Virus record (IMG/VR): IMGVR_UViG_3300017909_000575
Location: 1 to 36,062 of that record
From: a virus
Taxonomy: Duplodnaviria > Caudoviricetes
DNA length: 36,062 bases
Strand: one strand, 5' to 3'
In this document: positions 4,452-33,469 of the stretch, in pieces
Numbering within the stretch: the stretch's first letter is position 1
Layout of the letters: each line of letters opens with the position of its first letter
Translations under genes and position numbers: made by a program
The notes under the pieces: generated by a model
Databases searched by the model: none
What the model was told of the DNA's origin: nothing
What the model saw: only the letters and a program-made list of their open reading frames with translations

Positions 4452-4470
4452 TCTAATATGGTGGGTATTA
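4452..4470 (-). promoter_or_regulatory. Phage RNAP promoter (replication genes)
   Basis: TAATACCCACCATATTAGA directly downstream of the RNAP gene; identical to 11646-11664 and one mismatch from 33451-33469. Confidence 0.85.
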
Positions 4471-9505: not shown

Positions 9506-9561
9506 TCCAGCGGAACAAGAGGGAACAAGACCGTCCTGATGGTGTGTTTGTGGTGGCTCAG

Positions 9562-9621
9562 AATGTTAGCCTTGCCTAACTTTTGATGGGCTGGCTTAAA
9601 ATGTTAGCCTTGCCTAACTTT
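9562..9621. repeat. Two exact 22-bp direct repeats, each with an internal palindrome
   Basis: AATGTTAGCCTTGCCTAACTTT at 9562-9583 and 9600-9621; GTTAG-N6-CTAAC dyad. Confidence 0.9.
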
Positions 9622-10411: not shown

Positions 10412-10449
10412 ATCCACTAAAGATTATAATGCCTTAGTGGATATATCAA
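10412..10449 (-). promoter_or_regulatory. Sigma70-type promoter straddled by an inverted operator pair
   Basis: TTGATA-17-TAATCT; ATCCACTAA-N13-TTAGTGGAT (10412-10442) brackets the -10 element. Confidence 0.7.
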
Positions 10450-10508
10450 GATTTATTTAGTAAGGCTTATCAGGTATCACCGTAGCAATACGGTGACCCC
10501 GTTGAAGT

Positions 10509-10592
10509 TTACCAGATTAGAAGTAGCGGAATGGCTACCATCCAAGCCGTTGTTAGGCTAACGGCTAGAAGAAACTTTGCGATTTTTATCAT
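10509..10592 (-). CDS. 27-aa hydrophobic single-TM peptide
   Basis: Hand translation MIKIAKFLLAVSLTTAWMVAIPLLLIW; GAGG SD. Confidence 0.5.
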   Translation of the reverse strand: MIKIAKFLLAVSLTTAWMVAIPLLLIW

Positions 10593-10692
10593 CACGTTTT
10601 GCCTCTTTCTTTTTCTGTTTATGTGCAACCCATTTAGATATGCGAATTTGCCGCAATATCTTTTCTTCATTACGTTCCCAATAAGCCGCCAT
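10558..10692 (-). CDS. 44-aa basic hypothetical protein
   Basis: MAAYWERNEEKILRQIRISKWVAHKQKKKEAKRDDKNRKVSSSR; TAATG coupling to the upstream ORF. Confidence 0.6.
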   Translation of the reverse strand: MAAYWERNEEKILRQIRISKWVAHKQKKKEAKRDDKNRKVSSSR

Positions 10693-10907
10693 TATTTCAC
10701 CGCCAGATAGCGTTGGTTTAATGTGCGACCACTTGCCGGGAATGCATAGGCTGAAAGCTTGCCAAAATGAAAGCCTATTGAATGCTTGCCGAATGACAAG
10801 CCGTAGCGGTTATCACGGGCACGACGGCGAGTAAGCCAACGGCGAGAAATAACAACAGCTAAAGACAAGGCTACAATAGCGGCAATGGTTACATATGTAT
10901 TAGTCAT
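10692..10907 (-). CDS. Small N-anchored membrane protein; probably the first gene of the genome
   Basis: N-terminal TM helix followed by an Arg-rich segment; GAGGT SD. Confidence 0.7.
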   Translation of the reverse strand: MTNTYVTIAAIVALSLAVVISRRWLTRRRARDNRYGLSFGKHSIGFHFGKLSAYAFPASGRTLNQRYLAVK

Positions 10908-10997
10908 GATTTACCTCACTAGGTTTTGAGTGATACCGGGAAGCTACCCGGCAAGGTATCAAAAGGTGATACCTGATAAACCTTACTAAATGCGATA

Positions 10998-11032
10998 TTT
11001 ACAATTTCAAACAGCGTTAGGGCAAAACCCTA
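10998..11032 (-). promoter_or_regulatory. boxB-like hairpin followed by a boxA-like antitermination sequence
   Basis: Minus strand reads TAGGG-TTTTG-CCCTA-A-CGCTGTTTGAAATTGTAAA; compare boxA GCTCTTTAA(C/A)A. Confidence 0.5.
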
Positions 11033-11645: not shown

Positions 11646-11664
11646 TCTAATATGGTGGGTATTA
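11646..11664 (-). promoter_or_regulatory. Phage RNAP promoter (end-proximal, phiOR-like position)
   Basis: TAATACCCACCATATTAGA immediately after the terL stop. Confidence 0.85.
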
Positions 11665-33450: not shown

Positions 33451-33469
33451 TCTTATATGGTGGGTATTA
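33451..33469 (-). promoter_or_regulatory. Phage RNAP promoter (late/structural genes)
   Basis: TAATACCCACCATATAAGA; its TAA is also the RNR stop codon. Confidence 0.85.

Follow-up and report, generated by a model that had tools for sequence, protein, structure and literature searches.

A boxA site and a gene-enclosing long-range stem in a marine podophage suggest an early-gene leader resembling those of ribosomal RNA operons

The presence in a marine phage genome of three very small genes, enclosed by the two arms of a long inverted repeat and preceded on the transcribed strand by a boxA-like site, raises the question of whether this arrangement works in the manner of a ribosomal RNA (rrn) operon leader, or whether the site and the repeat serve unrelated purposes. 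The locus is found in the window, the complete 36,062-nucleotide stretch of virus DNA that was analysed, which represents a 36-kb record with an estimated completeness of 94%. By its sequence, the phage is a temperate T7-like marine podophage which encodes an RNA polymerase, an integrase, a MarR-like regulator and a GP88-family protein, all on the minus strand. Among cultured phages, HTVC019P-type pelagiphages have the closest polymerases (42-47% identity). The phage occurs in seawater metagenomes; among 20 runs listed, none is an RNA dataset containing it, which counts neither for nor against its transcription. We infer a host within the class Alphaproteobacteria; when 401 genomes of this class were searched for related prophages, two distant matches were obtained (RNA polymerase identities of 46% and 33%), neither of which names a host. 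The cassette is flanked on one side by the last genes of the late region (terminase, then a gene for a 67-aa protein) and on the other by the GP88 gene (PF17338; 9687-10388, minus strand), which is the first gene outside the loop and the sole match in a blastn comparison of the cassette region against cultured phages. The gene order is the same as in HTVC309P, while the DNA upstream of the cassette shows moderate likeness (59% mean column identity) to the left ends of HTVC019P and HTVC309P. On this basis the cassette region can reasonably be taken to be the DNA that enters the cell first.

All elements of the cassette are encoded on the minus strand, and their positions, the distance between the arms and the nature of the mismatch as given in a preliminary description of the locus were all correct on rechecking. 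A small hairpin (11018-11032; 6 bp; -6.9 kcal/mol) occupies the boxB position directly before a boxA of the alphaproteobacterial rrn type (10996-11016), which matches the leaders of the host class and includes the boxA-like 16-mer at 11016-11001. The 5′ arm of the long-range stem (10965-10991; pair probability: 0.79-1.0), located 24 nt from the boxA start, pairs with a 3′ arm (10455-10481) at a separation of 483 nt, forming 26 Watson-Crick pairs and one mismatch. The latter is a U-G pair on the minus strand (duplex: -42.4 kcal/mol) but A-C on the plus strand (-38.1 kcal/mol). The stem score of 26.2 compares with a best score of 17.8 in 20 shuffled genomes and a runner-up of 13.5 in the real genome, it is the sole match in a scan of the minus strand (688 tiles), and the cassette region has a folding z-score of -5.7. 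At 27 bp, the stem furthermore exceeds the duplex threshold of 22 bp or more given for RNase III (bioRxiv 10.64898/2026.03.17.712431). Two additional hairpins are found at the inner side of the arms. The first, between the 5′ arm and the ribosome-binding site of the first enclosed gene (10924-10964; -15.4 kcal/mol), was not equalled in any of 200 shuffles, while the second, just inside and overlapping the 3′ arm (10476-10497), is weaker, with 1-15 of 200 shuffles as good. Runs X3 and X4 as well as L001 carry the loop of this second hairpin (10485-10488) in inverted orientation, representing a hairpin-loop micro-inversion. No convincing promoter was found upstream of the cassette within the window, and an Rfam scan of the element returned nothing above cut-off and no rRNA.

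The loop contains three open reading frames, ORF1 (10692-10907; 71 aa, with an N-terminal hydrophobic helix followed by a basic region), ORF2 (10558-10692; 44 aa, basic, with a different ORF in its place in the sister subclade) and ORF3 (10509-10592; a 27-aa hydrophobic peptide), all on the minus strand. All three look like real genes, most clearly ORF1, for which 24 synonymous and four non-synonymous changes against L001 indicate purifying selection; ORF3 differs from its counterpart in L315 by six synonymous and four non-synonymous changes. The 29 ORF1 homologues are all close, and no family was found for this protein in PHROGs, Pfam or the ESM Atlas. An N-like family is likewise absent among the 40 proteins scanned against PHROGs and among the loop ORFs in Pfam, and ORF1 was rejected as an N-like candidate, as its arginine stretch comes after the hydrophobic helix and is altered in L085. 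The short, hydrophobic nature of ORF3 is what would be expected of a type I toxin-like mRNA, in which pairing of the 5′ and 3′ ends silences the peptide, an alternative raised in the preliminary description. The arms, however, overlap no ribosome-binding site within the loop, antisense promoter sites occur at chance level only, the Rfam PtaRNA1 match reaches 22.8 bits against a cut-off of 47, and the cassette elsewhere carries unrelated genes of 93-269 aa. With no sequestration of ribosome-binding sites, the toxin reading is not supported and we consider it very improbable.

The boxA and a stem of 24-27 bp closing after ORF3 are kept in six relatives, which use two unrelated arm sequences between them. 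The arms of L001 and L315 are those of the window with one compensatory change, while in L002, L003, L085 and L087 the other arm sequence occupies the corresponding position, 22-26 nt downstream of the shared boxA-like motif, and the stem closes after their own third small gene. The GP88 protein of L002 is 96% identical to that of the window, yet the arm sequences of the two are unrelated. In the sister family of four sequences two columns (45 and 48) are fully compensated, a count that is low because the covariation alignment placed the L085 3′ arm wrongly. A search of viral contigs with the exact arm pattern gave zero matches, so that the arms are not conserved in sequence. The layout proposed earlier thus proved to be conserved, with compensatory changes present, and as judged from this comparison the stem is a structure that has been maintained while its sequence was replaced. 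The RNA duplex is almost certainly under selection. The hairpin just inside the 5′ arm is present at the same place in all seven sequences, falling into two sequence families, while a hairpin comparable to that before boxA is present in four of the seven and weak in the other three, with no common sequence. The boxB part of the suggested leader is weak. Among 80 GP88 loci, most of which are without such a structure, 15 have a stem (score of at least 17) closing within 70 nt of GP88, and several of these 15 have no adjacent boxA. Gene-enclosing stems are also observed in L004, L006, L036, L043 and L090, where the 5′ arm overlaps sigma-70-like promoter hexamers and the 3′ arm adjoins the next ribosome-binding site.

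The origin of the boxA motif can be sought in the bacterial host, and a scan of species genomes gave matches mainly in Alphaproteobacteria. The same boxA 20-mer as in the window is located 128 nt before the 16S gene of a marine Rhodospirillaceae MAG (L249), where the 15-mer pattern is present once in the genome, at that 16S leader; in two genomes the 15-mer pattern is unique and sited in the rrn leader. In an independent sample of 30 loci, of which 28 were usable, 13 of the 28 alphaproteobacterial 16S leaders contain a site within three mismatches of the window 15-mer, compared to 4/300 shuffled windows, while 15/28 lie beyond this limit. The stem enclosing 16S starts 16-27 nt after boxA in all 13 matching leaders, and the corresponding distance in the window is 24 nt. 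Both the sequence and the boxA-to-arm spacing therefore match those of rrn leaders of the host class, and the boxA is very probably functional. Among 120 motif loci in host genomes, 16 are followed by an rRNA gene, 13 share the arms of those leaders and 91 have no rRNA link, as judged within the fetched DNA only. Given these 91 unlinked loci and the 15 unmatched leaders, the motif is not specific to rrn operons. Many intergenic boxA 20-mers with no rRNA nearby can be observed in MAGs of Robiginitomaculum, Aestuariivirga and other Alphaproteobacteria (L164, L166, L168, L182, L193, L196 and others), and the first ORFs behind the non-rRNA host motifs show no common pattern.

The motif could instead represent the -35 element of a sigma-70 promoter (TTGA(C/A)A), with transcription starting inside the 5′ arm and the repeats serving as DNA sites. 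The window, L001 and L002 have a TA dinucleotide at spacer 16, which, like the overlap of the 5′ arm with promoter-like hexamers in L004, L036, L043 and L090, would agree with this. The TA spacing is, however, lost in L003, L085 and L087, most other families have no -10 element there, and in L095, L102 and L124 a clear sigma-70-type promoter is located upstream instead. As the same motif furthermore sits inside host rrn leaders, the promoter explanation is highly doubtful.

The combination of boxA and stem is not restricted to the relatives of the window. Among viral contigs, 67 motif matches were found, 56 of them with sufficient downstream DNA, and a stem starts within 40 nt of the motif in 28/56 matches (8/24 clusters), compared to 13/1089 random starts and 0/54 upstream starts; the other half has a boxA without a long stem. 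A second motif pattern gave stems at 8/20 new loci. The arms belong to about six independent families, several clusters having a common core. Two complete records in one family have no match to a T7-type polymerase and another family resembles HTVC023P-type phages, indicating that the arrangement occurs in more than one phage type. A ribosome-binding site is located 17-39 nt past the arm in 27/28 loci, near-identical arms are found around different genes (L089/L107, L126/L146 and L101/L155), and in L116 and L095 a second arm starts directly after the first stem. In L126, L328 and L343 the boxA lies within the stem, and its closure would displace anything bound there. The same boxA is also observed before a phage tRNA array in L093 (1480-3499) and seven related loci, with no long stem; the tRNAs of L093 were the only Rfam matches above cut-off among 13 viral loci.

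This survey also bears on the suggestion that the locus is an invertible DNA segment, for which the tyrosine integrase of the phage or an invertase of the host would be the candidate recombinase. The inverted repeat of 27 bp is near-perfect and an integrase gene lies 2.3 kb away, which would be in keeping with such a segment. The 28 distinct arm pairs, however, contain 49 G-U against 11 A-C mismatches (symmetric scoring; the pairs are not independent), and the longest loop ORF is on the sense strand in all 28 loci, which together argue for RNA pairing rather than DNA inversion. The loop genes are similarly in the sense orientation in the window and its close relatives (7/7), no strand-changing joint was present in contigs of four runs from one study, although contigs drop rare variants, and the wholly different arms of close relatives leave no conserved recombinase site. 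With a second orientation not seen, the inverton alternative is not supported and is the least probable of those considered.

Cultured phages provide further instances of the parts and of the combination. In coliphage T5 (L370), the first-entering DNA harbors a boxA followed by a 28-bp stem with arms at 4978-4951 and 4707-4680 and a 243-nt loop around T5.008 (4988-4680, minus strand), while the T5-like phage Ace has a boxA, a stem and then a second boxA. A second T5 stem, of 30 bp, encloses hegG (6289-5282, minus strand). T7 has a perfect boxA 63 nt past promoter A3, with no long-range stem after it, and LUZ100 (L323, 648-787) has a perfect boxA past promoter P2, 42 nt downstream of the mapped host start site (PMC10134795 Table S7). 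A mapped RNA 3′ end at 732 of LUZ100 falls within a local stem, in its 5′ arm, and is described by the authors of the mapping as terminator T1 (PMC10134795). This arm lacks a U tract, and in our own reading the end may be an RNase III cut. Lo5R7ANS and TRX32-1 likewise have a boxA without a long stem, and long stems without a matching boxA nearby are found in L004, L006, L036, L043, L050, the pelagiphages HTVC309P and HTVC134P and the fosmid phage S42-C7. The stems of the latter three enclose genes and are placed back to back in HTVC309P (L280; 897-1348 and 1348-2488) and S42-C7. A back-to-back pair is observed in L281 (2037-2417 and 2415-3536), and in both L280 and L281 the stems enclose the first gene, then GP88 and the next gene, with no alphaproteobacterial boxA match. 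The combination of boxA and long stem was absent from the stretches fetched for HMO-2011, HTVC019P, HTVC023P, CRP-143, DSL-LC04, Lo5R7ANS and TRX32-1.

Taken together, the conservation of the layout, the match to boxA of the host class and the single DNA orientation seen in contigs support the rrn-leader-like reading put forward in the preliminary description, and we suggest that boxA and the conserved stem probably work, by analogy, like an rrn leader and processing stalk for the three early genes. The boxA-nucleated complex of E. coli holds the 5′ RNA in place at the polymerase exit channel and is considered to bring it together with the complementary sequence beyond 16S (PMC8632103). In vitro, elongation with the E. 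coli complex is twice as fast, and the share of a long-range helix that RNase III cuts co-transcriptionally rises from 12% to 56%, on a construct whose loop is the 16S 5′ domain (bioRxiv 10.64898/2026.03.17.712431). In the phage, host polymerase would transcribe the cassette from an upstream promoter, SuhB and the Nus factors of the host would assemble at boxA, and the complex would keep the 5′ arm on the polymerase while 483 nt loop out, before handing it to the 3′ arm so that the 27-bp stem closes. Host RNase III is predicted to cut this duplex, which would likely yield an mRNA with paired ends, backed up by the inner hairpins. Paired RNA ends resist exonucleases. The expected benefit, during the opening minutes of infection, would be transcription that is quicker and resistant to Rho, and a message that withstands exonucleases. 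Covalent circularisation of the released mRNA, also raised in the preliminary description, is possible at most as an outside chance.

The main rival to this reading holds that boxA and stem are both real but independent. The boxA would then provide antitermination for the whole early region and aid DNA entry, as the lone boxA of T7 may do, while the stem would be a long-range duplex of the usual kind, either cut by RNase III or stabilising, that needs no Nus factors to form; a cut in it may simply detach the Nus complex or start decay. Each element is indeed found without the other, RNase III duplexes of 10-36 bp spanning up to 505 nt are reported in B. subtilis mRNAs (PMC11780869), and 12% cutting takes place in vitro without a stable complex (bioRxiv 10.64898/2026.03.17.712431). 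Independence would, however, leave unaccounted for a boxA-to-arm spacing like that of rrn leaders in about six unrelated arm families, and the cassettes of L089, L107 and L126 precede convergent genes, so that little is located downstream to antiterminate. We therefore regard it as unlikely. Next in order is a translational timer resembling that of lambda N, in which the enclosed genes stay untranslated, blocked by a Nus loop, until synthesis of the 3′ arm allows RNase III to free the message. Repression of lambda N is relieved by RNase III, and the boxA is located about 95 nt ahead of the ORF1 ribosome-binding site. Nus loops repress suhB and lambda N translation in a boxA-dependent manner (PMC5725501), which by analogy could oppose fast expression and is a point against the rrn-like reading that we favor. 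Transcription of about 0.5 kb would, however, delay translation by mere seconds, and no ribosome-binding site in the loop is covered by the arms, making the timer improbable.

The rrn leader shares with the phage cassette an alphaproteobacterial-type boxA, a stem arm about 20 nt after boxA, a duplex of more than 22 bp enclosing a long loop, a G-U bias and tandem units, the latter in phages Ace, HTVC309P and L116. It differs in that the phage cassette encloses three protein-coding ORFs and no rRNA, and is as such not an rrn operon, although it may work like one. The phage arms moreover differ from one phage to the next and are unrelated to those of the host, a conserved boxB is lacking, and binding of the rrn antitermination complex (NusA, B, E, G, SuhB and S4) and cleavage are predictions in the case of the phage. 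The phage family, the position and a perfect boxA in the early leader are shared with T7, whose RNase III sites are intergenic local hairpins and which lacks a long-range stem after boxA. RNase III processes the early mRNAs of T7 (PMC6938266). The lambda nutL/N leader also combines boxA and Nus factors in an early phage leader, but there boxA is followed by boxB and N protein is required, whereas no N-like family was detected in the phage studied here, the stem of which encloses genes rather than being placed ahead of them. In the lambda N leader an RNase III site follows boxA. The B. subtilis mRNAs, with duplexes of 10-36 bp whose arms are up to 505 nt apart and which are cut by RNase III, are similar in their pairing across hundreds of nucleotides, while the section covering these sites describes no boxA or gene-bracketing cassette (PMC11780869).

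The individual parts of this arrangement are known, while searches of the open-access literature returned no account of a phage boxA combined with stems that enclose protein-coding genes; subscription articles and older studies of T5 and T7 lay outside the scope of these searches. What is new here is the alphaproteobacterial version with its host-leader control, along with the direct checks in T5, T7 and LUZ100. In its most general form, which we put forward tentatively and at slightly less than even confidence, unrelated phage lineages would have turned the host rRNA production line into a general first-wave cassette (promoter, boxA, 5′ arm, exchangeable payload and 3′ arm), in which Nus/SuhB looping is required for stem closure and the mRNAs that RNase III then frees are end-paired and nuclease-resistant. 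The Nus/SuhB complex is usually viewed as a machine for stable RNA and, on mRNA, mainly as a repressor. If the general form is correct, it could be hijacked as an mRNA chaperone without a phage N protein, the cassette would flag unknown early genes that phages prioritise, and a portable route to stable bacterial mRNA would be suggested. As T5 has the cassette, the idea is directly testable in E. coli.

Additional elements can be observed elsewhere in the window. A likely promoter of the phage RNA polymerase is present in three copies (4452-4470, 11646-11664 and 33451-33469), and a motif of about 14 nt starting with ATCCACT is repeated on the minus strand at 10442, 9683, 8741, 7028, 6972 and 4485, between genes of the early and lysogeny regions, with one copy adjoining the phage promoter at 4470. 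These copies are candidate operators of the MarR-like regulator. Furthermore, two near-identical 35-nt direct repeats, each with a short palindrome, are located between GP88 and the next gene (9549-9621) and possibly represent an operator or an integrase site.
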